Shown here: positions 3,836 to 35,335 of the stretch, piece by piece
Layout of the letters: the number at the start of each line of letters is the position of its first letter
How positions within the stretch are numbered: the first letter of the stretch is position 1
Assembly (NCBI GenBank): GCA_036260495.1
Contig: DATAMS010000647.1
Location: 1 to 51,429, forward strand
Length of the DNA: 51,429 nucleotides
Source of the DNA: Thermoanaerobaculia bacterium
GTDB lineage: Bacteria; Acidobacteriota; Thermoanaerobaculia; Gp7-AA8
Direction of reading: 5' to 3'
Program-made: the position numbers and the translations under genes
The notes under the pieces: model-generated
The model's input: only the letters and a program-made list of their open reading frames with translations
The model's database searches: none
Told to the model about the DNA's origin: nothing

Positions 3836-5323
3836 ATGACAGACGAACACACACACAATGGCTGCAACCACGGCGAGATGCTTCAGGACGTCGCGCGCCA
3901 GGCGATGATCGACAAAGGCCTCGCGCCCGATTTTTCTGCCGACGCTGAGAAACAGGCGGAGGCGGTGACGGGACCGGCGCAGGATACCGACGCGTCGATC
4001 AAAGACCTGCGCAATCTCCTCTGGTGCTCGATCGACAATGACGACTCGCGCGACCTCGACCAACTCACGGTCGCCGAGGACCTCGGCGGCGGAAACGTTC
4101 GCGCGATGATCGCCGTCGCCGACGTCGATGCCATCGTCAAGAAAGGCTCGCCGATCGACGATCACGCGCGCCAGAACACGACCTCGGTCTACACAGCCGC
4201 GCGCATTTTTCCGATGCTGCCCGAAAAGCTATCGACGAACCTGACGTCGTTGAATGAAAACGAAGAACGGATCGCGCTGGTCATGGACATCGTGGTCGAT
4301 TCCACCGGCTCCGTGACGAAGGGCGACGTCTATCGCGCACGCGTTCACAACAAAGCGCAGCTCGCCTACAACGCCCTCGGCATGTGGCTGGAAGGAAAGG
4401 GCGAATTGCCGGCGAAGGCGAAAGCGGTACCGGGCCTCGCCGAGAATCTCAAGCTGCAGGACAAGCTCGCCGATACGATGCGCGAGCTCCGCCACGAGAA
4501 CGGCGCGCTCGATCTCGAGACGATCGAGGCGCGCGCGGTCATGAGCAACGGCCACGTCGTCGATCTGCAGGTGGAGGCGCGCAACAACGCCAAGAACCTG
4601 ATCGAGGACTTCATGATCGCGGCGAACGGCGTCAGCGCACGTTATCTCGCGGACAAAGGTCTGCCCAGTCTGCGCCGCGTCGTCCGTTCGCCGGAACGCT
4701 GGGATCGCATCGAAGCGATCGCCGCGCAGTACGGCGAGAAGCTGCCAGGCGAGGCCGATGCGCAGGCCCTCGAAGAGTTTCTCGTTCGCCGCCGCAAAGC
4801 CGATCCGCTCCGTTTTCCCGATCTATCGCTGGCAATCGTGAAGGCGATGGGTGCGGGCGAGTACGTCGTCGAGATGCCTGGCCAGACGCCGATCGGCCAC
4901 TTCGGATTGGCCGTGAAGGACTACACGCACTCGACCGCGCCGAACCGGCGCTTCCCCGATCTCATTACGCATCGTTTGATCAAAGCCGCGCTCGCGGGCG
5001 CGACTTCGCCGTACACGCGCGAGGAGCTCGAAGCGCTGGCGACGCATTGCACCGAGGCGGAAGATGCGGCGAATAAGGTGGAGCGCCAGGTGAGGAAGTC
5101 TGCTGCTGCCTGCATCCTCGAGCCGCGCATCGGCGACCGCTTCGACGGACTCGTTACCGGCGCGTCCGAAAAAGGAACGTGGGTGCGCGTCTTCCATCCG
5201 CCGGTCGAGGGGAAGGTCGTGCACGGCGCGCAAGGGCTTGACGTCGGCGACAAGGTCACCGTCAAGCTGATCGACGTGAACGTCGAGCGCGGCTACATCG
5301 ACTTCGTGCGCGTCCACCACTGA
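3836..5323 (+). CDS. RNB-domain exoribonuclease (RNase II/R family) with C-terminal S1-like domain
   Basis: 495-aa ORF. RNB motifs are present: DSRDLDQ and HFGLAVKDYTHSTAPNRRFPDLITHR. The C-terminal stretch GDRFDGLVTGASEKGTWVRV resembles an S1 fold. Confidence 0.8.
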   Translation: MTDEHTHNGCNHGEMLQDVARQAMIDKGLAPDFSADAEKQAEAVTGPAQDTDASIKDLRNLLWCSIDNDDSRDLDQLTVAEDLGGGNVRAMIAVADVDAIVKKGSPIDDHARQNTTSVYTAARIFPMLPEKLSTNLTSLNENEERIALVMDIVVDSTGSVTKGDVYRARVHNKAQLAYNALGMWLEGKGELPAKAKAVPGLAENLKLQDKLADTMRELRHENGALDLETIEARAVMSNGHVVDLQVEARNNAKNLIEDFMIAANGVSARYLADKGLPSLRRVVRSPERWDRIEAIAAQYGEKLPGEADAQALEEFLVRRRKADPLRFPDLSLAIVKAMGAGEYVVEMPGQTPIGHFGLAVKDYTHSTAPNRRFPDLITHRLIKAALAGATSPYTREELEALATHCTEAEDAANKVERQVRKSAAACILEPRIGDRFDGLVTGASEKGTWVRVFHPPVEGKVVHGAQGLDVGDKVTVKLIDVNVERGYIDFVRVHH

Positions 5324-6645
5324 GACGCGAGCGCGAGCAGGAAAAGCGCCGGCGCGGCGAGGTGCATCAACAATCGGTTGGCCGTGACTGCGATCAGGTC
5401 GGTGACGACCCATTCCGTGGCGACGTAGACGCCGCAGTAGATGGCCAGCATCGACACGATGACGGCGATGGCGATCGTGGCCGCGCGGCGATCGACGCGG
5501 ATCGCAAATGCGCCAGCGATGATGACGGCGATCCAGAAAATCCCCCAGCTCGAGAAGGCGATCATGTGCTGTGGAAATGCAGTCAGCGCGGCGCGAAGGT
5601 GGTCCAGCTTCTCCGGAATCGTCGGCAGCATGCGCACGAAATTCTCTTCGTCACCAACCGGGATGCGCCCTCGCCAGACAAGGAGTGCGACGGCGGCGAT
5701 GATTGCGAAGATCGCGGGCGTGGCGATCCTCTTTCGAAAGACGAACGCGCCGATGACGAGGAAGACCAGCGCGAATGGCAGCCCTTCGCTCTTCGTGAGG
5801 ATGAGGAAAGCGAGCCAGAGTCCGAAGCGAATCTCGCGGTAGTCTGCGGTCGCGAGGTCTCGCGGCTGCGAGGTCTCGCGATCCTTCTCCCCGATGGAAG
5901 ACCGCGAGACCGCAAAACTGCGAGACCTCGCGACCGCATCCACCAACTCGAAAAACGCGCCTGCCGCAAACGCGGCGATGGCGATGTCGTTGTACGCCGA
6001 GAGCGCGCCTCCTTCCGTTGCGATGGCAAACTGCGGAATCCAGACGAGCAACGCTGCGCACCAGGCACCGATTGCGGGCGAGATCAGATTCGCGATTCGC
6101 TCGCGCACCAGCAGCGCGAGCGCAGCGAGGAGTCCGGCGTAAAGCCAGCGAACTTGACGATCGTCGAGACTGTGCGAAAGAGCAAAGATCACGGCGCCAT
6201 CGATCGGAATCAGGATCGGATATTGGTTGCGCGGATCGAGCGTTGCGCCCTGAAAGAACGGCCCATCGATCGATCGCTCATGCGCGATCCCCTTCGCCTT
6301 CAACACCCAGAACGCGCGGCCATCGAAGTCGTTGAGCGGCGTGACGGCAGCGATGAACGCGAGAACGATCAGCGGAATGGCCATCAGGATTGTGGGGAGT
6401 GGGGTGTGGGGTGTTGGGTGTGGGGTGTCTCCTTTGTATTTGCGGTAGGTCCACACTGCGCCGCCGATGCTTGCAATCAGCAACAGCGCGAATCCAAGCA
6501 CCAACGGCACGTGCACTACGCCAGCGAGGAAGAGAATCGTCCCGAGGAGACCGACGCCGAATAGAAATGCTTCGCCCCAGCTTCGTCGCGCGACGCTCCA
6601 GCCCACGAGCGGAAAAAGGACGAGCGTGATGACGAGGCCGATCAT
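5293..6645 (-). CDS. Polytopic membrane protein, possibly a GT-C/ArnT-like glycosyltransferase; carries two in-frame repeat insertions
   Basis: 450-aa ORF with many hydrophobic helices and an ILTKSEGLPF-type loop. Its start overlaps the upstream stop (ATGA at 6642-6645). Its 3' end overlaps the convergent RNB gene by 31 nt. Confidence 0.6.
   Translation of the reverse strand: MIGLVITLVLFPLVGWSVARRSWGEAFLFGVGLLGTILFLAGVVHVPLVLGFALLLIASIGGAVWTYRKYKGDTPHPTPHTPLPTILMAIPLIVLAFIAAVTPLNDFDGRAFWVLKAKGIAHERSIDGPFFQGATLDPRNQYPILIPIDGAVIFALSHSLDDRQVRWLYAGLLAALALLVRERIANLISPAIGAWCAALLVWIPQFAIATEGGALSAYNDIAIAAFAAGAFFELVDAVARSRSFAVSRSSIGEKDRETSQPRDLATADYREIRFGLWLAFLILTKSEGLPFALVFLVIGAFVFRKRIATPAIFAIIAAVALLVWRGRIPVGDEENFVRMLPTIPEKLDHLRAALTAFPQHMIAFSSWGIFWIAVIIAGAFAIRVDRRAATIAIAVIVSMLAIYCGVYVATEWVVTDLIAVTANRLLMHLAAPALFLLALASQWWTRTKSM
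5845..5938. repeat. 94-nt palindromic element inside a CDS
   Basis: Perfect 19-bp arms: TGCGGTCGCGAGGTCTCGC (5845-5863) pairs with GCGAGACCTCGCGACCGCA (5920-5938). An inner imperfect pair and a direct repeat of GCGAGGTCTCGCG are also present. It is read through in frame. Confidence 0.85.
6392..6429 (+). repeat. G-run heptad repeat inside a CDS (G4 consensus on the + strand)
   Basis: The sequence is GTGGGGAGTGGGGTGTGGGGTGTTGGGTGTGGGGTGT. It has five G3-4 tracts separated by 2-4 nt and is translated on the minus strand as TPHPTPHTP. Confidence 0.8.
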
Positions 6646-7706
6646 CGATTGGGCTGGGACTCCGGCCAGTAAAAATCAGTCTTGCCGTTCAGTTCTCGCG
6701 TCGTTACGAAGGCATACACATTTCCGCTGACAGCCGGAATCGCGTTGATCGGTTTCGTCACGATCGCGTGCGGCATGATCGGAATCGTCTCGGGACCAAC
6801 AGTCGTCACAGCGATCGAGTCGCTGAAATTGAGAAGAAAGAGTTTCGCATCGCGATGAAGCGGAGCCGCCGGAATGTGCGTGGCGAACCGCTGCACATTC
6901 GGCAACCGCGTCGCATCACCGCGTCCTCGGTTCACGAAATAGAACGCCGTGCGCAGTGGAAGGCGTGACTCAATCTGCATCCAGCCGCTCTCCGTGACGC
7001 CGAAAAGTTGATAGACGAGGTCGTAGTACGCGACGCTGTCACCGGCCTCCATCCTCAGCGTTCTGCTCTCGCCTTTGGGCCAGAATGTGATGCGAACCTC
7101 GTTCGTGCGGGGAAGACGTTCCATCAGCGGGCTGTTCGGCGCAGGTCCGTTCTGACCAACGCTCTGGTACAGGAGCGTCGCTTCGATGATGAACGTCTCC
7201 GGCGAGGCACCATCGATTGAGGCCGCGATCGGCAGAATGAACGACGTTCCCGGCTCGCTCAACTGTGGCGTCATGACCTCGCGATGGCCCGCGCGCAACT
7301 CGCGATCGCGGAGAATTTCGTACGATGTCCGCTCCGCCTTTTCTGATGTCACCGCGACGATGGTCTTCGGCCGCGTCGGATCGGGAGCGGCGTTTCGATA
7401 GTCGTTTCGTCCGGCAAATAGTCTGGTGCGGATCGGATACAGATAGTAATTCGCGAAGATGGCCGCCTCGGTATCCCGAATGCCAATGACCAGCGCGACC
7501 GGCTCTTTTTTTGGAAGCGTTCTGCGCAGCGATTCGATCGATGCGTACCACGCGCCCATCTGCCGCTCTCTTCGCGCCTCGTACGGCAGCGGCAAGAGCG
7601 TCAGCGCTTCGCGCGTACGTGCGACCAGTCGCGGCAACGTCGTTGCTGCGAGCGAGAGCAACAGCAGCGCGCAGAAAACGCGCGGAATCAGCGAGCGGTT
7701 CCTCAT
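6642..7706 (-). CDS. Hypothetical protein with N-terminal membrane anchor/signal
   Basis: 354-aa ORF with a hydrophobic N-terminus (VFCALLLLSLAATTL). It is translationally coupled on both sides by ATGA overlaps at 7703-7706 and 6642-6645. I recognise no motif. Confidence 0.6.
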   Translation of the reverse strand: MRNRSLIPRVFCALLLLSLAATTLPRLVARTREALTLLPLPYEARRERQMGAWYASIESLRRTLPKKEPVALVIGIRDTEAAIFANYYLYPIRTRLFAGRNDYRNAAPDPTRPKTIVAVTSEKAERTSYEILRDRELRAGHREVMTPQLSEPGTSFILPIAASIDGASPETFIIEATLLYQSVGQNGPAPNSPLMERLPRTNEVRITFWPKGESRTLRMEAGDSVAYYDLVYQLFGVTESGWMQIESRLPLRTAFYFVNRGRGDATRLPNVQRFATHIPAAPLHRDAKLFLLNFSDSIAVTTVGPETIPIMPHAIVTKPINAIPAVSGNVYAFVTTRELNGKTDFYWPESQPNR

Positions 7707-8062: not shown

Positions 8063-8099
8063 TGGACTAATCGTATAACTGCATTCGGCTGTGCCGAAT

Positions 8100-8213
8100 G
8101 CGTTGTCGGTTGTCGGTTGATTGCGCTTCGCGCGTTGTCAGAGATGCGGACCGGCGAGACAACCCGCGCGACCGGCAACGCGCGAAGCACAATCAACCGA
8201 CAACCGACAACGC
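8100..8213. repeat. Long palindrome with heptamer-repeat arms between panC and the panD-like gene
   Basis: 37-nt arms at 8101-8137 and 8176-8212 with one mismatch. The arms contain tandem GTTGTCG units and the spacer is 38 nt. It is preceded by an 8-bp hairpin (8081-8101). Confidence 0.9.
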
Positions 8214-9071
8214 GTGCGCCGCCAGGCGCATGCAATCAATCAGGCGCGTTCTGCCCACCTTCACTGCACCGGCGATGAGGATATCGCGCTGAAAGTCTGC
8301 GGGTGCGAGGAACGTTTCGGGATCGACGACGGCCAGATAGTCGATCGTGACGCCGGGAGTTTCTTCGATTGTCTTCTGCATCAACATTTCGATCTTGCCC
8401 GCGTCGTGAACGCCTCGTCTGATCGCCTCTTCGCCAAGTCGCAACGCTCGATAAAGCGCAGGCGCGATCGCTCGTTCATCCGCCGAGAGGTAGCTGTTCC
8501 GCGACGATCGCGCCAGACCATCCGGCTCGCGCGCGGTTTCCGCGAAGACGAGCTTCACGGGGACATCGAGATCGCGGACCATCCGTTCGATCACGGCGCA
8601 TTGCTGCGCGTCTTTGCGGCCGAAGACGGCGAGGCCGGGCTGCACGATATTGAAGAGTTTCAGGACGACTGTGGCCACGCCGTCGAAGTGTCCCGGCCGG
8701 CGCTCGCCTTCGAGCGGCTTGGCCACGGCTCCGGCGCGGACCCAGGTCTGCGATCCGGGCGGATACATGACCGCGACCGTCGGTAGAAAGAGAACATCCG
8801 CACCTTTGCCTTCGAGCAACGCCGCGTCGCGCGCTTCATCGCGCGGATAGCGCTCGAAATCCTCATTCGGCCCGAACTGCGTCGGATTGACGAAGATTGA
8901 TACGACGATGAAGTCCGCGCCATTCGCGCGCGCCTCGTCGATGAGCGAGAGATGGCCATCGTGAAGAAAGCCCATCGTCGGGATGAAGCCGATGATTTTG
9001 CCGGCTGCTCGCGCGTTCGCAATGGCGTCGCGTGTCTCGTCGATGGTTCTTGTCGTGAGCATTCGCGGCAA
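8193..9071 (-). CDS. panC: Pantoate--beta-alanine ligase
   Basis: 292-aa ORF with PTMGFLHDGHLSL and VSIFVNPTQFGPNEDF motifs. The ORF opens with TTG at 9071; an ATG at 9062 is an alternative start. The stop at 8193 lies inside the right arm of the 8100-8213 palindrome. Confidence 0.9.
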   Translation of the reverse strand: MPRMLTTRTIDETRDAIANARAAGKIIGFIPTMGFLHDGHLSLIDEARANGADFIVVSIFVNPTQFGPNEDFERYPRDEARDAALLEGKGADVLFLPTVAVMYPPGSQTWVRAGAVAKPLEGERRPGHFDGVATVVLKLFNIVQPGLAVFGRKDAQQCAVIERMVRDLDVPVKLVFAETAREPDGLARSSRNSYLSADERAIAPALYRALRLGEEAIRRGVHDAGKIEMLMQKTIEETPGVTIDYLAVVDPETFLAPADFQRDILIAGAVKVGRTRLIDCMRLAAHALSVVG

Positions 9072-10111: not shown

Positions 10112-10753
10112 TCAGGATCCAAGCGGTACGTAGTACTGCGTGCCCTTCTTTGCGTTTCGAATCTGCTCGATGAGCTGATCGAAATGCTCGGGCGTGTTGA
10201 CGAAATCGATCTCGTTCGTGTTCACGACCAGCAATGGCGTCTCGTCGTACCGGTAAAAGTAGTGTGAGTACGCCTCGCTGAGCTCTTGCAAATATTGTGG
10301 CGAGATCGACTTCTCGTAGGCCCGTCCGCGCTTCTTCACGCGTTTGAGTAGTGTATCAAGCGACGCCTGCAGATAGATAACCAGGTCCGGCTTCGGCACG
10401 CTGTCGTACAGGAGCTCGTACATCCGGTTGTAGATCATCAGCTCCGAATCTTCCAACGTCATGTACGCAAAGATCTTGTCTTTCGGAAACGAGTAGTCCG
10501 CGAGGATCAGCTCGGTGAAGAGATCGCGCTGCGAGATCGAGCGCTGCTGGTCGTAGCGCGAGAGCAGAAAAAAGAGCTGGCAGCGGAAGGCCGCGCCGCG
10601 CTTGTCTTTGTAGAAATCGGCAAGGAAGGGGTTGTCGACATCCTCGAGAATCTTCGTCCCGCGAAAGCGCTTGGCGAGCAGGTTCACCAGCGACGTCTTC
10701 CCGACGCCGATCGGTCCCTCGACGGCGATATGACGAAACGGCAGCGGCGGCAC
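10112..10753 (-). CDS. Deoxynucleoside kinase (dAK/dGK/dCK family)
   Basis: Only the C-terminal 213 aa of the 645-aa ORF look genuine. The start is a GTG at 10753 (VPPLPFRHIAVEGPIGVGKTS P-loop). The motif order is that of the dNK family (FLLSRY, DLVIYL, RVKKRGRAYE). Confidence 0.8.
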   Translation of the reverse strand: MPPLPFRHIAVEGPIGVGKTSLVNLLAKRFRGTKILEDVDNPFLADFYKDKRGAAFRCQLFFLLSRYDQQRSISQRDLFTELILADYSFPKDKIFAYMTLEDSELMIYNRMYELLYDSVPKPDLVIYLQASLDTLLKRVKKRGRAYEKSISPQYLQELSEAYSHYFYRYDETPLLVVNTNEIDFVNTPEHFDQLIEQIRNAKKGTQYYVPLGS

Positions 10754-10756
10754 GGA

Positions 10757-10839
10757 CGAAGGATAAGGGATGAAGGATGAAGGATGAAGAAAATGAGCGT
10801 GACGGCCTTCATCCTTCATCCTTCCGACTTCATCCTTCG
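10757..10839. repeat. Palindrome with GGATGAA heptamer arms in the divergent dNK/M16 spacer
   Basis: 34-nt arms at 10757-10790 and 10806-10839 match at about 27 of 34 positions. The spacer is 15 nt. The element fills 83 of the 108 nt between the two start codons. Confidence 0.85.
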
Positions 10840-10861
10840 CCTGTGATACAACCCCTCGCCG

Positions 10862-12118
10862 ATGCTTTCGATTGAAACCTACACTCTCGACAACGGCCTC
10901 CGAGTCGTCCTCAACGAAGATCACTCCGCACCGCTCGTCGCAGTCAACCTCTGGTATCACGTCGGCTCGAAGAACGAACGGCCGGGGCGCACGGGTTTTG
11001 CGCATCTGTTCGAGCACATGCTGTTCTCCGGCTCGGAGCACGTCGGCAACAACGAGCACTTTCGCTACGTGCAGTCCGTCGGCGGCGTGTTGAATGGCAC
11101 GACGTTCTTCGACCGCACGAATTACTTCGAGACGCTGCCGTCGAACTACCTCGCGCTCGGTCTCTGGCTCGAGTCCGATCGGATGGGCTTCTTCCTTCCC
11201 GCTCTGACGCAGGAGAAGCTCGACATCCAGCGCGAAGTGGTGAAGGAAGAACGCCGCCAGCGATACGACAACGTTCCGTACGGCACGGCGTTCGAACGCC
11301 TGCTCAAGCTCGCGTACGATCCCGATTACTCCTACCACTGGCCCACGATCGGCTCGATGGCCGACCTCGGCGCTGCGTCGCTCGACGACATCCGCGAGTT
11401 CTTCAGTACCTGGTACCGGCCCGACAACGCCACGCTCACGCTGATCGGCGATTTCGTTCCCGATGAAGCGAAGCAATTGGTCGAGCACTACTTTGGTTCG
11501 ATCCCCGCTGGAAAATCCTTTCCGAAGTTCGCACTGACGCGGAAGCCGCTGAACGGTGAGCGCCGCGAAACCGTCCCTTCGCCGGTGCAACTGCCGCGCG
11601 TTTACCGGCTCTATCACCTTCCGAAGATGGGACACCCTGATTGGATCGCCGCCGATCTGTTGTCGTCGGTGCTGAGCGGCGACAAAGCCAGCCGGTTCGA
11701 GAAAGCGCTCGTCCTCGAGCAGCAGATCGCGACCGACGTCGCCGCGTATGTGCTGCCAACCGAGTCGACCGGAATTCTCATGATGCAAGCGACGGCGAAC
11801 GACGACGTTCCGATCGAAGACGTCGAGCGCGCCATCGACGCCGAGATTGCCCGCGTCGTCTCGGATGGCATTACTGCCGATGAGCTGACCCGCGCGAAGA
11901 ACCGCGCCGAGGTCGAGTACGCGCACCAGATCGAAAACTACGACTCGCGCGCCGATCTGATCGGGATGATGGCGACGTACTTTGATGACCCTTCGATGGT
12001 TCACACGTGGCTCGATCCATACCGCGCCGCGACCAGCCACGACCTGCAACGCGTGACAGCCGAGTACCTCGTGCCCGACAACCGCGTGACCAGCACGTTC
12101 GTCCCGGAGACCGCATGA
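10862..12118 (+). CDS. M16 (pitrilysin) family zinc peptidase, catalytic-type subunit
   Basis: 418-aa ORF with an intact HxxEH zinc motif (GFAHLFEHMLFSGSEH). Confidence 0.85.
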   Translation: MLSIETYTLDNGLRVVLNEDHSAPLVAVNLWYHVGSKNERPGRTGFAHLFEHMLFSGSEHVGNNEHFRYVQSVGGVLNGTTFFDRTNYFETLPSNYLALGLWLESDRMGFFLPALTQEKLDIQREVVKEERRQRYDNVPYGTAFERLLKLAYDPDYSYHWPTIGSMADLGAASLDDIREFFSTWYRPDNATLTLIGDFVPDEAKQLVEHYFGSIPAGKSFPKFALTRKPLNGERRETVPSPVQLPRVYRLYHLPKMGHPDWIAADLLSSVLSGDKASRFEKALVLEQQIATDVAAYVLPTESTGILMMQATANDDVPIEDVERAIDAEIARVVSDGITADELTRAKNRAEVEYAHQIENYDSRADLIGMMATYFDDPSMVHTWLDPYRAATSHDLQRVTAEYLVPDNRVTSTFVPETA

Positions 12119-13489: not shown

Positions 13490-13669
13490 CCTGTCATTCC
13501 GAAACGGCGGAACCGCGGGGGCGGCGGGGCGGTGGGAGCGGTGGAGCACGGAGAGGAATCCCCTGACGATTGGAATGTACTCGCTTCGAAGGCGGGGGAT
13601 TTCTCATCGCGCTACACCGCTCACACCCACCCGGCCACCCCCGCGGTTCCGCCGATTCGAAATGACAGG
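13490..13669. repeat. 180-nt imperfect palindrome
   Basis: The left arm (13490-13543) and right arm (13615-13669) are about 85% complementary. They share the CCTGTCATT(C/T)CGAA...GGCGGAACCGCGGGGG core. An inner pair joins GAGAGGAATCCCC with GGGGGATTTCTC. Confidence 0.85.
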
Positions 13670-20563: not shown

Positions 20564-21895
20564 TTACCTAAGGTCCAACGCGCGCTCCACCGCTTCGATG
20601 GTCGGATCGATCTCGATCGTTCGTTCCTTCGGGACGTTGCGCAGGATGGAGTCAGTGTCCTTGAGCAGGTGGCCTGTCAGCACGCAAACGATCCGCTCGC
20701 CGTCGTGCATGACGCCCGCGGCCCGGAGTTTTCTCACGCCGGCCAGAGTCGTGGCGGATGCGGGCTCGCAGCCGATGCCCATTTCGTCGATCTCGCGTTT
20801 GGCAGCCATCAGCTCGTCGTCGGTCACTTCTTCGACGATGCCGTTCGTTGACTGAATCGCGGTCACTGCTTTGGCGTGGCTGACGGGATCGCCGATGCGG
20901 ATGGCGCTGGCGATGGTTTCGGCGCTGATTTTGTGGCGCGTGGCGAACGACTCGCGGTAGCTGCGGAAGAACGGATTCGCGCCGCTGGCCTGGATCGAGG
21001 CGAGGCGTGGCATCGTCGTGATCCAGCCGGCGTCGAAGGCTTCGCGCAGCGCTTTGCCGAAGGCGCTGGTGTTGCCGAGGTTGCCGGCGGGGACGACGAT
21101 CCAATCGGGAGCGTTCCATTCGAGATCCTGCAGCAACTCCCACACGATCGTTTTCTGGCCCTCGATGCGAAACGGGTTGATGGAGTTGACGAGATAGATG
21201 CCGAGCTTGTCGCAGGCTTCGCGAACGAGCGTCATGGCGGCGTCGAAATCGCCGCGAACGGCAAGCGCGGTTGCTCCGTACGCGAGCGTCTGCGCGAGCT
21301 TGCCGGTGGCGACTTTCCCCGCGGGGACGAACACGACCGCACGAATGCCGGCCTGCGCTGCGTACGCGGCCAGCGACGCGCTGGTGTTGCCGGTCGAGGC
21401 GCAAGCAACGGCGCGGGCGCCGAGCCGTTTGGCCTGCGTCATGGCCACAGTCATGCCGCGGTCTTTGAATGAACCGGTGGGATTTTCGCCTTCGTGTTTG
21501 AAGTGGATTCGGGTGTCGGGTGTCGGGTGTCGGGTGTGGGAGCTGTTGCCCGATCTCGGACTCTCGTTGAGATCGGAGCCTTCTCGAAGATCGTGGCCCT
21601 TGTCTGCTCTCTCCGACTCCCGGCCCCCGGCTCCCCACTCCCGCGAGTACATCCTCGTCGCCCCCTCGGGATGCGTGACGATTTGATCTTCATCGATCGA
21701 CAAGACCGCTTCGCGGAATCGCCAGACGCCGCTTTGATCGATTGTGCGGCGGCTGGCGCGGCGCGCTTCGAAGATCTCGCGATCGGGAAACGTGTCGCGC
21801 TCAACGTTCAGCAGATCGCCGCACTCGCAGGTGTAGCGGATCTCGAGCGCGTCGAACTTGCGTCCGCAGGCGATGCATTGCAGCCATTCGCTCAT
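20564..21895 (-). CDS. thrC: Threonine synthase (N-terminal zinc-ribbon type) carrying an in-frame repeat-derived insertion
   Basis: The start ATG at 21895 overlaps the thrB stop (ATGA). Motifs include CIACGRKF...CECG and the PLP-lysine motif NPTGSFKDRG, plus ASTGNTSAS and NPFRIEGQKT. The ORF-track N-terminal 137 aa are spurious. Confidence 0.9.
   Translation of the reverse strand: MSEWLQCIACGRKFDALEIRYTCECGDLLNVERDTFPDREIFEARRASRRTIDQSGVWRFREAVLSIDEDQIVTHPEGATRMYSREWGAGGRESERADKGHDLREGSDLNESPRSGNSSHTRHPTPDTRIHFKHEGENPTGSFKDRGMTVAMTQAKRLGARAVACASTGNTSASLAAYAAQAGIRAVVFVPAGKVATGKLAQTLAYGATALAVRGDFDAAMTLVREACDKLGIYLVNSINPFRIEGQKTIVWELLQDLEWNAPDWIVVPAGNLGNTSAFGKALREAFDAGWITTMPRLASIQASGANPFFRSYRESFATRHKISAETIASAIRIGDPVSHAKAVTAIQSTNGIVEEVTDDELMAAKREIDEMGIGCEPASATTLAGVRKLRAAGVMHDGERIVCVLTGHLLKDTDSILRNVPKERTIEIDPTIEAVERALDLR
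21506..21645. repeat. ~140-nt imperfect palindromic repeat element inside thrC
   Basis: The left arm is (GGGTGTC)x3-GGGTGTGGGAG (21511-21542). The right arm is C-rich, CTCCGACTCCCGGCCCCCGGCTCCCCACTCCCG (21611-21643). An inner 8-bp hairpin joins CCGATCTC (21550-21557) with GAGATCGG (21569-21576). Confidence 0.8.
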
Positions 21896-22806
21896 ACGGC
21901 GTGCACTCCTTGCCGCGCGATCGGCGAAACGCGCGCGGTCGATCGAACCTGTTCGAAGGCCGTCTGCATCGCCGCGGTCACGCGATGCGCGATGTCGCCG
22001 TCGGCGCAGATTGCGACGAGTGTCGGGCCGGAGCCGCTGATCGTGCAGGCGAACGCGCCGGCGTCGAGTGCGGCGCGCTTCACGGCGTTGAAGTGCGGGA
22101 TGAGCGCGGCGCGGCGCGGTTCGGCGTAGCGATCGTCGAGGGCGCGGCGCAGCAACTCGCCATCGCCGGTCGCGAACGCGTGCACGACACCCGCGGTGTT
22201 CGCCATCTGCTGGACCCAGACCGCGCGGCCCGAGGTCGATGGCAAGACTTCGCGCGCAGCTTTCGTCTGGATGCGGACGTCGGGCGTTACCAACGCGAGG
22301 CGCCAATCGGCGGCCACTGTCAGAGCGATGATGTCGATGGGACGGACGGAGCGCGAGAGGGCAAGTCCGCCCAGAATGGCTGGCGCGATGTTGTCGAGAT
22401 GCTCGCCGGCGACGGTCATCTCACCTTGCAACGCTGCCGCGGCCAGCTCGACCGGCGATGTTTCGCTGCCCATCGCCAGCGCGGCGGCGAACGCGCCGGC
22501 GACACTGCTGGCGGCGCTGCCGCCGAGTCCGCCCGACAGCGGCAAGCCTTTATCAATGGTCACGATCGGATTGCGCGAATCGCCATGCGCGCGAAGCCAG
22601 GCGATGGCGGCGATCGCGGCGGCGTTGCGTTGGGGATCGAGCGGAACGAGCGCGGCGTCGATGCCGGTGATGCTGTCGACGCGCGCATCGCCATCGGTCA
22701 ACTCGATCGTGACGCGGTCGCCGATTCCTTCGATGGCGAGGCCGAGAACGTCGAAACCGGGACCGACGTTGCCGATGGAGCCGGGCGCGAATGCCGTCGC
22801 GCTCAC
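21892..22806 (-). CDS. thrB: Homoserine kinase (GHMP family)
   Basis: 304-aa ORF with APGSIGNVGPGFDVLG and the GHMP motif PLSGGLGGSAAS. It overlaps thrA and thrC by 4 nt each. Confidence 0.9.
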   Translation of the reverse strand: MSATAFAPGSIGNVGPGFDVLGLAIEGIGDRVTIELTDGDARVDSITGIDAALVPLDPQRNAAAIAAIAWLRAHGDSRNPIVTIDKGLPLSGGLGGSAASSVAGAFAAALAMGSETSPVELAAAALQGEMTVAGEHLDNIAPAILGGLALSRSVRPIDIIALTVAADWRLALVTPDVRIQTKAAREVLPSTSGRAVWVQQMANTAGVVHAFATGDGELLRRALDDRYAEPRRAALIPHFNAVKRAALDAGAFACTISGSGPTLVAICADGDIAHRVTAAMQTAFEQVRSTARVSPIARQGVHAV

Positions 22807-25352
22807 CGGCTTCGCCTCCGACGTTCTTCCATGGCGATGGCGACGATGTCGTTGAGAACGCCGGCCGCGGTCACGGTCGCGCCGGCGCCCGGACCGGAGA
22901 CGACGAGCGGATTCGTTTTGTAGCGCTTCGAATAAATCGCCACCTGGTTTGCGGTCCCGCGCAGATGAGCGAGCGGCGAGGTGTTCGGCACGGCTTCGAC
23001 GCCGACGGAGATCGAGCGCTTGCGAATCGTGGCCACGTAGCGCAGAACTTTGCCGCCGCGGCGCGCGCGATCGACACGTTCGCGATACTCGTCGTCGAGC
23101 GAGACCAGTCCGGCAATGAACGTCTTTGCGTCGATGTTGCTGCCATCGCTGCGAACGAGCGGCTCGAGTTTGATCTCGTCCGGCTCGGCGCGATAGCCGA
23201 GCGTGCGCGCCAGAATGAGCGCCTTGCGCGCGACGTCCATGCCGGAGAGATCGTCGCGCGGATCAGGTTCCGTGTAGCCAAGCTCCCACGCTTTGCGCAC
23301 GGCCTCGGAAAACGCGACGCCGTCTTCGAGCGCGGTCATCAGGTAGCCGAGGGTGCCGGAAAAACAGCCGAGAATCATCTCGATTTTGTCGCCCGCTTCC
23401 TGCAGTTTTGCGATCGTGTCGAGCACCGGCAATCCCGCGCCGGCGGTGGCCTCGTAGCGAACGGAAAGGCCGCGCTCTTTCGCGGTTTCCATCAGCCGGT
23501 CGAACTCGAGCTGCGGTCCGGCCAGCGGTTTCTTGTTCGCGCAGACGACGTGAAATCCGTATTCGAGCGCTTCCTGCAGCAGCGGACCTGTTTCTTCCGA
23601 GGTGAGATCGACGAGCACCGGGCGGTACGACGGCAGCATCCAAAGCTCGTCGCGCATCATCGTTTCGAGCTCGCGCAACGTCAGCGGCGAGCCGCGCTCG
23701 AAAAGGCGCGCGCCTGATTCTTTTCGTTTCGCGAATCGCTGCAATGCCGCTGGAGTGAATCCTTTGTCGTCGATGCGGATGCCGGAACGGTCGGCGACGG
23801 CGACGACTTTGAGATCGATGCCGAGGTCTCGGCGGAGGTGCGGTTGCTGCGCGATCAGTTGACGCGCCAGCTCGCGGCCGATCTGGCCGAGGCCGAGAAG
23901 AGTGAGCTTGGCCTCGCGGCCAGTCGTGTCGGCGAGCGGACGGATCTTGTGGAGCTGGTATTCGGAATGAAGCGCCAGCAACGCGCGCGTGGCATCACTT
24001 TCCGAAACCGCGATCGTGATGTTGAGCTCCGAGGAGCCTTGCGCGATGGCGACGATGTTCACGCCGGCGGCGGCGATCGCGGAGAACGTTCGCGCGGCGA
24101 TGCCGGACGTTCCGCGCATGCCCAGTCCGACGACGGCAATGAGTGCGACCCGTTTCTCGGCGTCGATGCGATCGATGAGATGGAGTTTGCGCTCCGGCTC
24201 GAACGCCGCTTCGAGCGCCGCGACGGCATGATCAGCTTCCGATTCGGGGACGACGAAACAGATGCTCGATTCGCTCGATGCCTGGCTGATCATCGAGACG
24301 GAATGGCCTGCCTGCGAGAGTGCGGTGAACGCGCGGCCGGCGACGCCCGGCACGCCGATCATTCCGTTTCCTTCAATCGAGAGGAGCGCCTGGCGATGAA
24401 TCGCGGTGAGCGCTTTGACCGGATAGGAGCCGGGCTTGACGTCGCCGGCGATGCGCGTGCCGGGCGAGGTCTCGCGAAAACTGTTGCGCACGTAAAGCGG
24501 AATGCGGCGGTCGACGAGCGGGATCATCGTGCGCGGATGCAGCACGTTCGCGCCGTAGTAGGCCAGCTCGGCGGCCTCGCGGTAATGCAGATCGGCGATG
24601 ACGCGTGCGGCGGGAACGCTCTTCGGATCGGCGGTCATGAGGCCGTCGACTTCTTTGAAGAGTCGCAGCGCACGCGCGCCGATGCTGCGCGCCAGAATCG
24701 CCGCGGAGAAGTCGGAGCCGCCGCGCCCGAGGGTGACGACGGAGCCGTCCGGGCCGCTGGCGAGGAAGCCGGGCATCACGACGACTTTTCCGGCGGCAAG
24801 CAATGGCAGAACGTTCTTCTTCGCGGCGCGTTCGCACTTCAACAAATTCGGCCAGAGCGTTCCCAATCTTCGCTCCGTTTGAATCACCTCGGTGGCATCG
24901 ACGAACACCGCATCGATTCCGATCTCGATTGCGGCAATGGCGAAGATCGCGGCGACGAGGCGCTCGCCACGGGCGACGAGTGCGTCCTGCGCGCGAGGAG
25001 TCAACTCGCCGAGGACTGCGATGCTTTCGGTCATGGAACGAAGCTCGCGGACGGATTCGGTGATGACCGCGTTCAGGGCGTTGGCGCGATCGGGCGTGGC
25101 AACCAGCTCCGCAACCAGCGTCCGATGCCGCGATTCGACCTGCGCCGCGGCGTCATCGCAACGCGCGCGATCGCGGCGCAACGCGGCCTGGCCGGCTTCG
25201 AGCAGCAGATCGGTGACGCCATTCATCGCCGAGACGACGACAGCAACACCCGGCGCCGCGCGGCTCACGTGCGCGAGCGCAACGCGAATCGCATCGGCAT
25301 TGCCGACGGCGACACCGCCAAACTTGAAGACCTCGGGACGAGCCTGCTTCAT
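22803..25352 (-). CDS. thrA: Bifunctional aspartokinase / homoserine dehydrogenase
   Basis: 849-aa ORF. The N-terminus is an amino-acid kinase (VFKFGGVAVG), followed by ACT-like regions and a C-terminal HSDH (LGLGQIGREL, NKKPLAG, SGTLGYL). Confidence 0.9.
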   Translation of the reverse strand: MKQARPEVFKFGGVAVGNADAIRVALAHVSRAAPGVAVVVSAMNGVTDLLLEAGQAALRRDRARCDDAAAQVESRHRTLVAELVATPDRANALNAVITESVRELRSMTESIAVLGELTPRAQDALVARGERLVAAIFAIAAIEIGIDAVFVDATEVIQTERRLGTLWPNLLKCERAAKKNVLPLLAAGKVVVMPGFLASGPDGSVVTLGRGGSDFSAAILARSIGARALRLFKEVDGLMTADPKSVPAARVIADLHYREAAELAYYGANVLHPRTMIPLVDRRIPLYVRNSFRETSPGTRIAGDVKPGSYPVKALTAIHRQALLSIEGNGMIGVPGVAGRAFTALSQAGHSVSMISQASSESSICFVVPESEADHAVAALEAAFEPERKLHLIDRIDAEKRVALIAVVGLGMRGTSGIAARTFSAIAAAGVNIVAIAQGSSELNITIAVSESDATRALLALHSEYQLHKIRPLADTTGREAKLTLLGLGQIGRELARQLIAQQPHLRRDLGIDLKVVAVADRSGIRIDDKGFTPAALQRFAKRKESGARLFERGSPLTLRELETMMRDELWMLPSYRPVLVDLTSEETGPLLQEALEYGFHVVCANKKPLAGPQLEFDRLMETAKERGLSVRYEATAGAGLPVLDTIAKLQEAGDKIEMILGCFSGTLGYLMTALEDGVAFSEAVRKAWELGYTEPDPRDDLSGMDVARKALILARTLGYRAEPDEIKLEPLVRSDGSNIDAKTFIAGLVSLDDEYRERVDRARRGGKVLRYVATIRKRSISVGVEAVPNTSPLAHLRGTANQVAIYSKRYKTNPLVVSGPGAGATVTAAGVLNDIVAIAMEERRRRSR

Positions 25353-25378
25353 GAGGACGCGGAGTATAAGCGGCGCTT

Positions 25379-25470
25379 GGGGTCAGGTCTGAAGTGTGAA
25401 GTGACGGAAGACCGCTTCGGCCTCTCTGCGACAATCCCGATCCGTCACTTCACACTTCAGACCTGACCCC
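25379..25470. repeat. Perfect 30-bp inverted repeat upstream of thrA
   Basis: GGGGTCAGGTCTGAAGTGTGAAGTGACGGA (25379-25408) is the exact reverse complement of 25441-25470. The spacer is 32 nt. The arms contain tandem GAAGTG(T/A) heptamers. Confidence 0.95.
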
Positions 25471-25536
25471 AGGCGCCTGACGCCCTGGGAACATTGGCGG
25501 CACGCTTTTTTCGCCAGTCGATAAGCCCTGCTCCTG

Positions 25537-32834: not shown

Positions 32835-33626
32835 TTGGACTCCCTCCGAACTCTCTACCGCTACCGCCAGCTCATCGTTGCGCTTACGGCGCGCGATCTG
32901 AAAGCGCGTTACCGCGGCTCGATCCTCGGATTTTTTTGGTCGCTGGCGAACCCGCTCCTGCTGCTCGCGGTCTACACGATCGTCTTCACGTTCCTGTTTC
33001 CGCCGAATCTCGTCCATCCCTATCCGCTGTTTCTTTTTGCCGGGATCCTGCCGTGGACGTTCTTCTCCGCCGCCGTTCTCGAATCGACGATGTCGATCTC
33101 GTCGAACGCGGGGCTGATCAAGAAGGTGATGTTTCCCGCCGAGGCGTTGCCGCTGGTCACGGTGGCATCGCATCTCGTGCATTTCGTCCTGGCCATGCCC
33201 ATCCTCCTTCTCGCCACGCTCGGCTACGCGATTCACGGCGACATCAAAGTCACTCTCACCATCCTGCTCGTGCCGGTTTTCATGATCCTGCAGACGCTCT
33301 TCGTGGCCGGCATCGCCATGACCGTTTCGTCCGCGTCGGTGCTCTTTCGTGATCTTCGCGACATCCTGACGAATCTGATGCAGCTCGGCTTTTTCGTGAC
33401 GCCGATTCTCTATCTCGTCGATCGCGTCCAATCACGTCCGCTGCGCGCGCTACTGCGGCTCAATCCGATGACGCCGTTCGTGATTTCGTACCAGGACGTG
33501 CTGTTCTTCGGACATTTGCCCGGGCTCGCCGACTCGTTACTGATGATTGCGTACGCGTCGTTCTCCGTGGCGATGGGCGTGATCGTGTTCGGAAGACTGC
33601 GCGATACGCTGGCGGAGGCGATTTAG
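32835..33626 (+). CDS. wzm: ABC-2 type polysaccharide/O-antigen export permease
   Basis: 263-aa ORF with a TTG start. The N-terminal stretch LIVALTARDLKARYRGSILGFFWSLANPLL is the hallmark of Wzm/TagG permeases, and there are six TM segments. Confidence 0.8.
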   Translation: MDSLRTLYRYRQLIVALTARDLKARYRGSILGFFWSLANPLLLLAVYTIVFTFLFPPNLVHPYPLFLFAGILPWTFFSAAVLESTMSISSNAGLIKKVMFPAEALPLVTVASHLVHFVLAMPILLLATLGYAIHGDIKVTLTILLVPVFMILQTLFVAGIAMTVSSASVLFRDLRDILTNLMQLGFFVTPILYLVDRVQSRPLRALLRLNPMTPFVISYQDVLFFGHLPGLADSLLMIAYASFSVAMGVIVFGRLRDTLAEAI

Positions 33627-33823
33627 GGGTTGCTGGGTTGCTCGGTTGCTGGGTTTTTGGGTTGCCGGGTTGCCGGGTTACCTGGTTGCCGGCGGCAGTC
33701 CGGTTTGTTTGAAGACAAATCATCAAAGCCAAACGTACTCAATCATTCGCCGGCAACCCGACAACCCGGCAACCCGACAACCCGACAACCCCAGCAACCT
33801 AGCAACTCGGCAACCCAGCAACC
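33627..33823. repeat. ~200-nt palindrome with 8-nt-period arms between wzm and wzt
   Basis: The left arm is (N)GGGTTGC-type octamers (33627-33693). The right arm is the complementary GCAACCC(N) octamers (33748-33823). The central 54-nt spacer holds a small hairpin. Confidence 0.9.
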
Positions 33824-35187: not shown

Positions 35188-35218
35188 CTCGTGCGGCCCG
35201 ATCTGCAACCAAAGACTC

Positions 35219-35284
35219 AACCACAGAGACGCAGAGATCACTGAGAAGAAGCGTCGACTCTGTGCTCTCTGCGCCTCTGTGGTT
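35219..35284. repeat. Inverted repeat in the wzt / antitoxin-like convergent spacer (possible bidirectional terminator)
   Basis: AACCACAGAGACGCAGAGA (35219-35237) pairs with TCTCTGCGCCTCTGTGGTT (35266-35284) with one mismatch over 19 nt. Confidence 0.8.
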
Positions 35285-35335
35285 CAGGGTTCTGAAATTT
35301 AAACGGAGCGACACTTTTCGCGCCAACCGCTGAAC

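Follow-up and report, generated by a model that had tools for sequence, protein, structure and literature searches.

The window analyzed in this work is a stretch of 51,429 nucleotides (nt) from a Thermoanaerobaculia bacterium (phylum Acidobacteriota), and its minus strand carries thrC, the gene encoding threonine synthase (positions 20564-21895; an open reading frame [ORF] of 443 codons specifying 443 amino acids, identified from the ORF and its translation, from matches in the PDB and Pfam, and from an AlphaFold2 [AF2] model). The coding sequence of this gene contains an in-frame insert of 132 nt, or 44 codons (positions 21509-21640, minus strand; ThrC residues 86-129, EWGAGGRESERADKGHDLREGSDLNESPRSGNSSHTRHPTPDTR), which was delimited by protein alignment and by comparison of the DNA at the site and which is built from two arms of heptamer repeats. 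A preliminary description of the window had placed an insert of about 45 codons at positions 21506-21645; the insert is real, and its limits are now refined to those given above. The presence of a structured repeat in frame within thrC was likewise borne out by the sequence, by the translation, and by the alignment of homologs.

The product of thrC matched solved threonine synthase structures of the PDB with E values of 1e-78 to 1e-72 (1.3e-78 for 2zsj and 1.3e-76 for 1e5x) and the Pfam family PALP (PF00291) with an E value of 1.3e-65. The motif containing the pyridoxal 5'-phosphate (PLP)-binding lysine, FKHEGENPTGSFKDRG, is kept, S-F-K-D-R-G being the class-defining motif. Outside the insert, the protein is ~90% identical to its relatives and retains every invariant motif and residue, including SFKDRG. 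To judge from its sequence, thrC encodes a genuine threonine synthase, a fold-type II PLP enzyme. It is the final gene of an operon in the order thrA-thrB-thrC, the neighbors being assigned by Pfam. The homoserine kinase gene thrB (21892-22806, minus strand; an ORF with Pfam GHMP_kinases_N and GHMP_kinases_C matches on an identical Joint Genome Institute [JGI] contig) lies directly upstream, its stop codon overlapping the start codon of thrC, and is preceded by thrA, which encodes a bifunctional aspartokinase/homoserine dehydrogenase (22803-25352, minus strand; an ORF with Pfam AA_kinase, ACT, and Homoserine_dh matches). The next gene after thrC is a convergent amino acid permease gene.

The boundaries of the insert were obtained from a protein alignment with 45 relatives (79 to 91% identity), in which all of the length variation occurs at one site. 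The HPEG and NPTGSFKD motifs were also located in 160 loci, which gave a measure of the DNA between them that does not depend on gene calls. The HPEG-to-NPTG distance is 192 nt in the window, 66 nt in most Thermoanaerobaculia, and 93 nt in Gemmatimonadota and Myxococcota. Most Thermoanaerobaculia ThrC proteins read ...LYERGGIFFKHEG at this site, with a two-residue turn. In the window, the insert stands in place of the Gly-Gly turn of the closest insert-free relatives, for a net gain of 126 nt, and the translation, ...THPEGATRMYSREWGAGG...HPTPDTRIHFKHEGENPTGSFKDRG, is open and in frame across it. The segment is missing from most Thermoanaerobaculia and from the other phyla examined; it is not the conserved segment of equivalent length in many phyla that would have made it an ordinary feature of the family. 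As a separate observation, Thermoanaerobaculia loci such as L010 and L015 (relatives are designated here by locus numbers) lack 9 residues at the site in comparison to the ThrC proteins of Gemmatimonadota and Myxococcota (66 versus 93 nt), and this class-wide shortfall indicates that the inserts occupy a place from which a short segment had been lost earlier.

The arm located 3' in the mRNA (21509-21541, minus strand), detected by Tandem Repeats Finder (TRF) and by comparison with the repeat family, reads (GGGTGTC)x4-GGGAG on the plus strand, positions 21510-21541 corresponding to (GGGTGTC)x3-GGGTGTGGGAG. TRF reported a unit of TCGGGTG at positions 21509-21537 (period, 7; 4.1 copies; 100% matches). 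In the mRNA, this arm is C-rich, CTCCCAC(ACCCGAC)x3ACCCGA, and encodes SHTRHPTPDTR, and its template strand contains five tracts of three G residues (G3). The thrC inserts of L084, L086, and L088 provided its best matches, in their 3' arms. The arm located 5' in the mRNA (21609-21640, minus strand) has the coding strand GAGTGGGGAGCCGGGGGCCGGGAGTCGGAGAG, a degenerate array of GGGRGNC/GGGGAGT heptamers with four tracts of at least three G residues, which encodes EWGAGGRESE and is homologous to the (GGGAGTC)n or (GGGGAGT)n arms of the relatives; on the plus strand it appears as a C-rich arm, CTCCGACTCCCGGCCCCCGGCTCCCCACTCCCG, at positions 21611-21643. Between the arms lies an inner hairpin formed by CCGATCTC (21550-21557) and GAGATCGG (21569-21576), with 8 bp, 100% complementarity, and an 11-nt loop, which appears in the minimum free energy (MFE) fold of the insert as well. 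Thus, the components first reported for the element, i.e., a left arm of (GGGTGTC)x3-GGGTGTGGGAG, an 8-bp inner hairpin, and a C-rich right arm, were all recovered by TRF, the repeat search, and inspection of the sequence. The G-rich arm had been assigned to the template strand of thrC, which holds for one arm only: each DNA strand of the insert has a G-rich arm of its own, in which at least four G3 tracts are separated by loops of 2 to 4 nt, a putative G-quadruplex motif.

As a palindrome, the window copy is weak, with outer arms of 15 nt that are 73% complementary. The RNA fold of the insert has an energy of -64.5 kcal/mol, compared to -54.0 ± 3.8 kcal/mol for shuffled sequences (z, -2.8), and 1 of 200 shuffles folded as well. 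The insert is recognizable as a hairpin mainly because relatives have near-perfect versions of it. The central segment (67 nt; 21542-21608, minus strand) is unique to this genome among the DNA compared: a blastn-short search found no further copy in the window or in the 160 loci. It shares a 10-nt identity, GAGAGTCCGA, with an inverted doublet present at the matching position in L001 and L002 that resembles repetitive extragenic palindromic (REP) elements (see below), although 4 to 10 of 500 shuffles scored equally. The central segment may therefore be a decayed nested doublet of this type. Miniature inverted-repeat transposable elements have terminal inverted repeats together with a target-site duplication; the arms of the insert are inverted repeats, and no direct duplication is found on either side of it in the window or the relatives.

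The peptide encoded by the insert is hydrophilic and of low complexity, being rich in G, S, E, R, P, T, and D. In the AF2 model of ThrC, obtained with an alignment of 103 sequences including Gemmatimonadota ThrC proteins (mean predicted local distance difference test score [pLDDT], 82.4; predicted template modeling score, 0.84), residues 91 to 126 form a coil with a pLDDT of <50 between β-strands 82-86 and 129-134. The top Foldseek match of this model was the Arabidopsis threonine synthase 2c2b (TM score, 0.80). A model based on a shallow alignment of 46 close relatives had a mean pLDDT of 54.7 and was not used. The insert is thus predicted to form a disordered surface loop at the tip of a β-hairpin in an otherwise normal ThrC fold, at a position predicted to be surface exposed and structurally permissive. 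The earlier proposal of a tolerated surface loop is supported by this low-confidence coil of the model.

Homologous inserts in related genomes

A comparison with related genomes had been suggested as a check, and it revealed inserts in 29 further loci (12 from genomes and 17 from metagenomes, some of them redundant), all at exactly the same codon position. All 29 loci come from one Thermoanaerobaculia subclade, with ThrC proteins at least 78% identical to that of the window. The insert is therefore not a single-genome event: the alignments identify it as a hypervariable, patchily distributed feature of the subclade rather than one private to this genome. After removal of duplicates, 10 distinct lengths were found (45, 48, 54, 75, 81, 84, 87, 90, 111, and 132 nt), and all 10 are multiples of three, for which the chance probability is ~3^-10 if the 10 lengths are taken as independent. 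This constraint on length indicates that the segment is translated rather than removed from the RNA. The preliminary description had been right that the insert contains no stop codon and keeps the frame, but the first of these features turned out to be uninformative on translation, since the GC-rich inserts have hardly any stop codons in any of the three frames, including the two that are not used. The absence of stop codons was accordingly dropped as evidence, and length is informative instead.

The typical insert of a relative consists of a 5' arm of (GGGAGTC)3-4 or (GGGGAGT)3-4, a loop of 12 to 20 nt, and a 3' arm of (GACNCCC)3-4 or (ACTCCCC)n, and it encodes a peptide that differs among relatives (e.g., DDNRQPTTDN). 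The MFEs of the hairpin inserts range from about -40 to -79 kcal/mol, with near-perfect hairpins in L005 (-63 kcal/mol) and L081 (-70 kcal/mol), and one regular mismatch per heptamer is frequent. In six nonredundant alleles (L008, L009, L014, L082, L091, and L096), the 5' arm has been wholly lost and the C-rich 3' arm alone is left. RNAalifold predicted 24 pairs for 13 inserts of 75 to 87 nt. Three of these pairs, all at position 7 of the heptamer, have changed from C-G to G-C on both arms in L005, L006, and L092, whereas in L085, L086, and L087 the 5' arm alone has switched, leaving G·G mismatches. Taken together, the C-G to G-C switches, the alleles with a single arm, the regularly spaced mismatches, and the weak pairing of the window copy suggest homogenization within each arm with occasional correction of the opposite arm, and not strong selection on structure. 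The alleles form a decay series from near-perfect hairpins, through mismatches in each heptamer, changes of one arm, and loss of the 5' arm, to the weak copy of the window, which is, by its place in this series, among the most decayed and at a late stage of decay.

The thrC inserts share the loop motif GCGTCT(T/C)TTC and subclade-specific 3' junctions (GATTCCCC and GAACCACC). In three loci, the insert contains an in-frame REP-like inverted doublet, GTAG-GTCGGACT-CTCC-AGTCCGAC followed by its complement (L001, 3258-3335; L012, 3258-3335; L002, 3273-3350). In L001 and L012, the insert departs from the heptamer pattern and reads AAC-GTAG-GTCGGACT-CTCC-AGTCCGAC and then continues with the inverted copy; in L002, the doublet is nested inside the heptamer hairpin, and the insert is 132 nt long, equal in length to that of the window. 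The doublet is patchy even within clade A, since it is present in L001, L012, and L002 and absent from the neighbors L014, L081, and L082. The window has no match to it at up to three mismatches. No copy outside thrC of L001, L002, and L012 was found in 1.46 Mb of locus DNA (7 to 21 kb per relative genome), nor was any found in viral contigs in an exact or loop-degenerate form.

The distribution of the insert was examined on two neighbor-joining trees, one based on 2.4 kb of thrA/thrB and the other on thrC with the insert removed, which are taken here only as showing that the patchiness is robust. The two trees agree on the main groups. The insert is present in 7 of 7 members of clade A, which includes the window, in 7 of 7 members of clade B1, and in 2 of 3 members of clade B2. 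Clade B3 is interleaved, with L084 (+78 nt) grouping with L105 and L106 (+0) and L006 (+81 nt) grouping with L010 (+0). On both trees, the pattern of presence and absence is patchy and requires at least six gains or at least eight losses. The insert-free alleles within the clade read CGC GGC GGN ATC, as in the outgroups. Simple deletion from insert-bearing alleles cannot regenerate this sequence, implying that homologous recombination or repeated gain is required. A sliding nearest-neighbor comparison along thrC gave a mosaic but noisy picture, without a decisive tract.

Another site of thrC also carries a repeat in some relatives. A (GTTGGCC)x4 heptamer array is present in the region encoding the N-terminal zinc ribbon in L132 (106-133) and L139 (2504-2531), where it is read as LLAVGRLPLAVGR; the counterpart in the window is LLNVERDTFPDRE, and the length is unchanged.

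Tandem-repeat hairpins outside thrC

Elements with arms of tandem 7- to 8-mers occur at other sites of the window, those between genes lying mostly straight after stop codons. The intergenic copies comprise a single G-rich array located 5 nt past the rho stop codon (2253-2286), a GTTGTCG hairpin whose right arm extends into the final codons of a gene that ends at position 8193 (8095-8218), a GGATGAA hairpin with tandem 7-mer arms (10751-10845), and tandem 7-mer hairpins or arrays at 13490-13669 and 35216-35287. The largest of the class in the window, a hairpin of ~200 nt with arms of ~8 tandem octamers, (GGGTTGCC)n/(CCGRCAAC)n, occupies positions 33626-33823 in the space that precedes the next gene, starting directly at the stop codon of the gene upstream. 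A further hairpin containing GAAGTGT/GAAGTGA repeats, with 37-nt arms that are 97% complementary, lies in the thrABC leader, at a distance of 20 nt from the start codon of thrA on its upstream side (25372-25477). The comparison originally drawn between the thrC insert, as an imperfect palindrome, and the intergenic elements of the window thus stands insofar as tandem 7- or 8-mer hairpins are found in the window and in relatives, with the qualification that the outer arms of the thrC copy are weakly paired.

Outside thrC, 105 arrays with a period of 7 or 8 were counted in 1.18 Mb of Thermoanaerobaculia loci, and most have an inverted partner. Hairpins of the GGGAGTC/GACNCCC type also occur elsewhere in relatives: the two that were checked against ORFs lie just past stop codons (L090, 16894-16986; L012, 6715-6866), and more copies occur in L081 (11053-11244) and L092 (4582-4661). 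The loops of these non-thrC hairpins are unrelated to each other and to the thrC inserts, the heptamer arms being the only common part. Thus, the thrC copies are related by descent, as indicated by their common loop motif and subclade-specific 3' junctions, and the wider class is related in architecture only. L012 and L081 also have orthologous intergenic elements of ~240 nt (6680-6920 and 11020-11255; MFEs, -144 and -135 kcal/mol, respectively) with concentric arms, the outer ones being (GGGGGTG)n/(CACCCCC)n and the inner ones (GGGAGTC)n/(GACYCCC)n.

A second gene of the window, 15 kb from thrC, has captured a hairpin of this class in frame, so that two such genes are found within 51 kb. The gene encodes a membrane protein (5293-6645, minus strand; 450 amino acids), for which 461 homologs were found, many aligned from residue 1; the stop codon of the preceding gene overlaps its start codon. 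The insert (5842-5937) is an almost perfect hairpin whose arms consist of tandem 8-mers, (GCGGTCTC)n/(GCGAGACC)n, and its RNA MFE is -92.3 kcal/mol (z, -9.7). It encodes ~31 extra residues, DAVARSRSFAVSRSSIGEKDRETSQPRDLATADYRE (DAVARSRSF...ATADYRE), which are absent in all 12 of the aligned homologs. This second case indicates that in-frame repeat capture is recurrent in this genome. Intragenic cases are claimed here only if verified by alignment of homologs, as a screen based on GC content at third codon positions cannot separate coding segments from stop-to-stop extensions of ORFs. The same ORF contains a (TGTGGGG)x5.4 array (6391-6428), which is translated as GDTPHPTPHTPLPT and falls in a loop that separates transmembrane segments and differs in length among homologs.

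Interpretation of the thrC insert

We favor the interpretation that the insert is a tolerated, translated, and fast-evolving repeat hairpin carried by thrC as a passenger, with a probability of about 0.68. The position of the insert, the constraint on its frame, its family resemblance, the decay series, and the disordered loop of the model are established by the comparisons described above. The insert would originate from a genome-wide class of hairpins with arms of tandem 7- to 8-nt arrays, usually intergenic and just past stop codons, of which one copy would have come into thrC at the Gly-Gly tip of a β-hairpin, upstream of the strand leading to the PLP-lysine motif. Its route of arrival could have been either a transposition-like insertion or local growth. 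The insert would then be transcribed and translated straight through, producing a 44-residue hydrophilic, disordered loop that ThrC tolerates, and it would have no role in catalysis and probably no function. Selection would be limited to two things, a length that is a multiple of three and a loop that is harmless, and the DNA would otherwise evolve fast, presumably by slippage and template switching. Slippage of units would homogenize each arm, and the opposite arm would occasionally receive the matching change. The loop would turn over, one arm could be lost, and a REP-like doublet would have been inserted into the loop in some lineages.

Several observations weigh against this interpretation. 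The hairpin persists in at least four subclades that differ by 10 to 20% in their ThrC proteins, with arms of about four units retained. In L005, L006, and L092, three units have switched from C-G to G-C in both arms, which could mean selection for pairing rather than neutrality. The patchiness on both trees and the outgroup-like, insert-free alleles need recombination or repeated site-specific gain, neither of which a purely passive model explains. The disordered loop depends on one AF2 model.

Persistence of the hairpin and its patchy distribution are what keep two other explanations under consideration. According to one, the hairpin or competing G-quadruplexes on each strand would be a selected cis element in thrC, acting through pausing of the ribosome or RNA polymerase, on the stability of the thrABC mRNA, or at the DNA level, and the encoded loop would merely be its price. 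The strong hairpins with about four heptamers per arm in several subclades, the two-sided changes in one lineage, and the repeated changes of state at one and the same site are in keeping with this proposal, as is the presence of at least four G3 tracts on both strands of the window copy, four units being the G-quadruplex-competent number preferred in Xanthomonas (PMC4692102). However, many close relatives do without the insert and keep a plain Gly-Gly turn, six nonredundant alleles lack the 5' arm, the one-arm change of L085, L086, and L087 is uncompensated, and the fold of the window copy is only marginally better than those of shuffled sequences. The two-sided changes represent a single homogenized event, for which homogenization or templated arm-to-arm repair suffices without selection. 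Terminator scans returned no site arising from the outer hairpin of the insert, with totals near the shuffle expectation, and an Rfam search over the whole window found nothing at the gathering score, the only match near the site being a chance-level one to gyrA (E = 0.86). We consider a cis element unlikely on this basis. The other explanation, which we regard as improbable, holds that the site is a hot spot repeatedly targeted, or precisely vacated, by a mobile hairpin element, for example via an IS200/IS605-type tyrosine transposase associated with REP elements. The number of gains or losses required on two concordant trees, the ancestral appearance of the insert-free alleles, the occurrence of the REP-like doublet in L001, L012, and L002 when their neighbors lack it, and the hairpins with the same units at other loci would fit such a mechanism. 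Descent from one thrC insertion is nonetheless favored by the common loop motif and the subclade junctions, no target-site duplication is visible, the REP-like doublet has no further copy in the locus DNA or viral contigs searched, no transposase was found (no search aimed at one was made), and the mosaic nearest-neighbor patterns along thrC fit homologous recombination equally. In its boldest form, the argument would be that the thrC turn is a hot spot with a dedicated, structure-specific machinery of creation and removal, in which heptamer hairpins and nested REP-like doublets may be repeatedly made, homogenized on both arms, and precisely removed, or else that a hairpin/G-quadruplex switch is a selected cis-regulator of thrABC. 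This statement is quite doubtful; if it were true, this Acidobacteriota lineage would regularly draw on simple-repeat hairpins for new protein loops in its core genes.

Two further explanations would deny the insert a place in the mature enzyme or in the genome, and both appear hardly credible. Removal at the RNA or protein level had been raised in the preliminary description and would mean excision from the mRNA, ribosome skipping, or protein splicing; the strong structure of the segment in relatives and its location within a conserved enzyme core could be quoted in its favor. The multiples of three found for all 10 lengths speak against it, as neither RNA excision nor ribosomal bypass would need them; 44 residues are far below the size of an intein, the junctions (Arg|Glu...Arg|Ile) are not intein-like, and Rfam provided no match to an intron or ribozyme family. 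An assembly artifact might be suspected from the metagenomic source and from the propensity of repeats and hairpins to cause errors in short-read assembly, and a decaying thrC pseudogene would be a related possibility. The identical 443-residue protein, insert included, is encoded by the 22.8-kb JGI contig Ga0400311_0000035, with 0 mismatches in 5332 nt; this contig ends inside the window at both ends and is thus a separate assembly product, although the two assemblies may derive from the same reads. Homologous inserts at the same codon in 29 other loci, one of them on a 5.9-Mb chromosome record, also speak against an artifact, and the ~90% identity of the rest of thrC to its relatives, with every invariant residue intact, speaks against a pseudogene.

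If the insert is a tolerated passenger, as we favor, repeat hairpins that are normally intergenic can persist for evolutionarily long periods in an essential enzyme gene of a free-living bacterium, with length and sequence changing fast while selection polices the reading frame. The natural series of loop insertions of 13 to 44 residues at one ThrC turn would be useful for studies of insertion tolerance, and the site offers a tractable locus for the evolution of tandem-repeat hairpins by slippage, arm-to-arm correction, and nested REP-like insertion. The inserts also call for caution in the annotation and homology modeling of Acidobacteriota proteins.

Comparison with known repeat systems

In the set of papers searched, none linked Thermoanaerobaculia with inverted repeats. 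Among the repeats known from other bacteria, REP elements and their doublets (REPINs) are extragenic elements mobilized by REP-associated tyrosine transposases (RAYTs) of the IS200/IS605 family and are characterized by a 5' GTAG head, an imperfect palindrome, an inverted-doublet organization, and tens to hundreds of copies per genome alongside a cognate RAYT gene; they are reportedly the subject of work by Nunvar in 2010, Bertels and Rainey in 2011, and Ton-Hoang in 2012. The nested element of L001, L012, and L002 resembles a REPIN in its 5' GTAG, in its palindrome, GTCGGACT-CTCC-AGTCCGAC, and in the inverted doublet that would form one long hairpin. Unlike REP elements, which are extragenic by definition, this doublet lies in frame within a coding sequence, and the window has at most a decayed trace of it.

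Rickettsia palindromic elements (RPEs) are palindromic repeats found in frame in many housekeeping genes of Rickettsia, where they are tolerated at permissive positions (Ogata et al. 2000, Science 290:347, as summarized in the review PMC10969869). Similar to the thrC insert, RPEs are hairpin-forming palindromes of ~100 to 150 bp that are translated in frame within unrelated housekeeping genes and are thought to be tolerated through permissive, surface-exposed positions. RPEs are present in more than one gene per genome, as is the case here with thrC and the membrane protein gene. The thrC insert is an in-frame hairpin repeat within an ORF that is absent from orthologs, as RPEs are, but it does not belong to a dispersed family with a conserved sequence and peptide. 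RPEs form families with a conserved encoded peptide, whereas the arms in thrC are tandem 7- to 8-nt repeats of which the unit, peptide, and length vary among close relatives, and most copies of the present hairpin class are intergenic. The hosts also differ, RPEs occurring in reduced intracellular genomes and the thrC insert in free-living, GC-rich soil Acidobacteriota, and the two would not be expected to resemble each other in sequence.

The closest resemblance in construction is to the GGGAATC repeats of Xanthomonas and the GGGGA(C/T)T repeats of Nostoc, which form 70 to 75 convergent inverted pairs per genome (Rehm et al. 2015, PMC4692102). These heptamer repeats have no known function, are 89 to 93% intergenic, lie near the upstream ORF, and show a preference for four units (PMC4692102). 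Intragenic copies are rare in Xanthomonas (7 to 11%), and none has been described in frame in an essential enzyme across a clade (PMC4692102). The repeats reported here are likewise tandem heptamers of two or more units with a G3-4 tract (GGGAGTC, GGGGAGT, and GGGTGTC), typically in about four units, as in the perfect array of 4.1 GGGTGTC copies in thrC. They frequently form convergent pairs with the potential for a stem-loop or a putative G-quadruplex, are scattered over mostly intergenic sites near the ends of ORFs, and vary in length and sequence between close relatives. In contrast to Xanthomonas and Nostoc, many units coexist here (GGTTGCC, GGATGAA, GATAGCA, GCGGTCTC, and others), some of which are not G-quadruplex capable.

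By analogy, RPEs are thus the closest functional counterpart of the thrC insert and G-rich heptamer repeats the closest structural one. The lack of a conserved sequence and peptide sets the insert apart from RPEs: it would work like an RPE but is built as a heptamer inverted pair. The phenomenon has precedents; new here are the type of element, the phylum in which it occurs, the hypervariable series that a whole clade displays at a single codon of an essential enzyme, and the additional case in the membrane protein gene.

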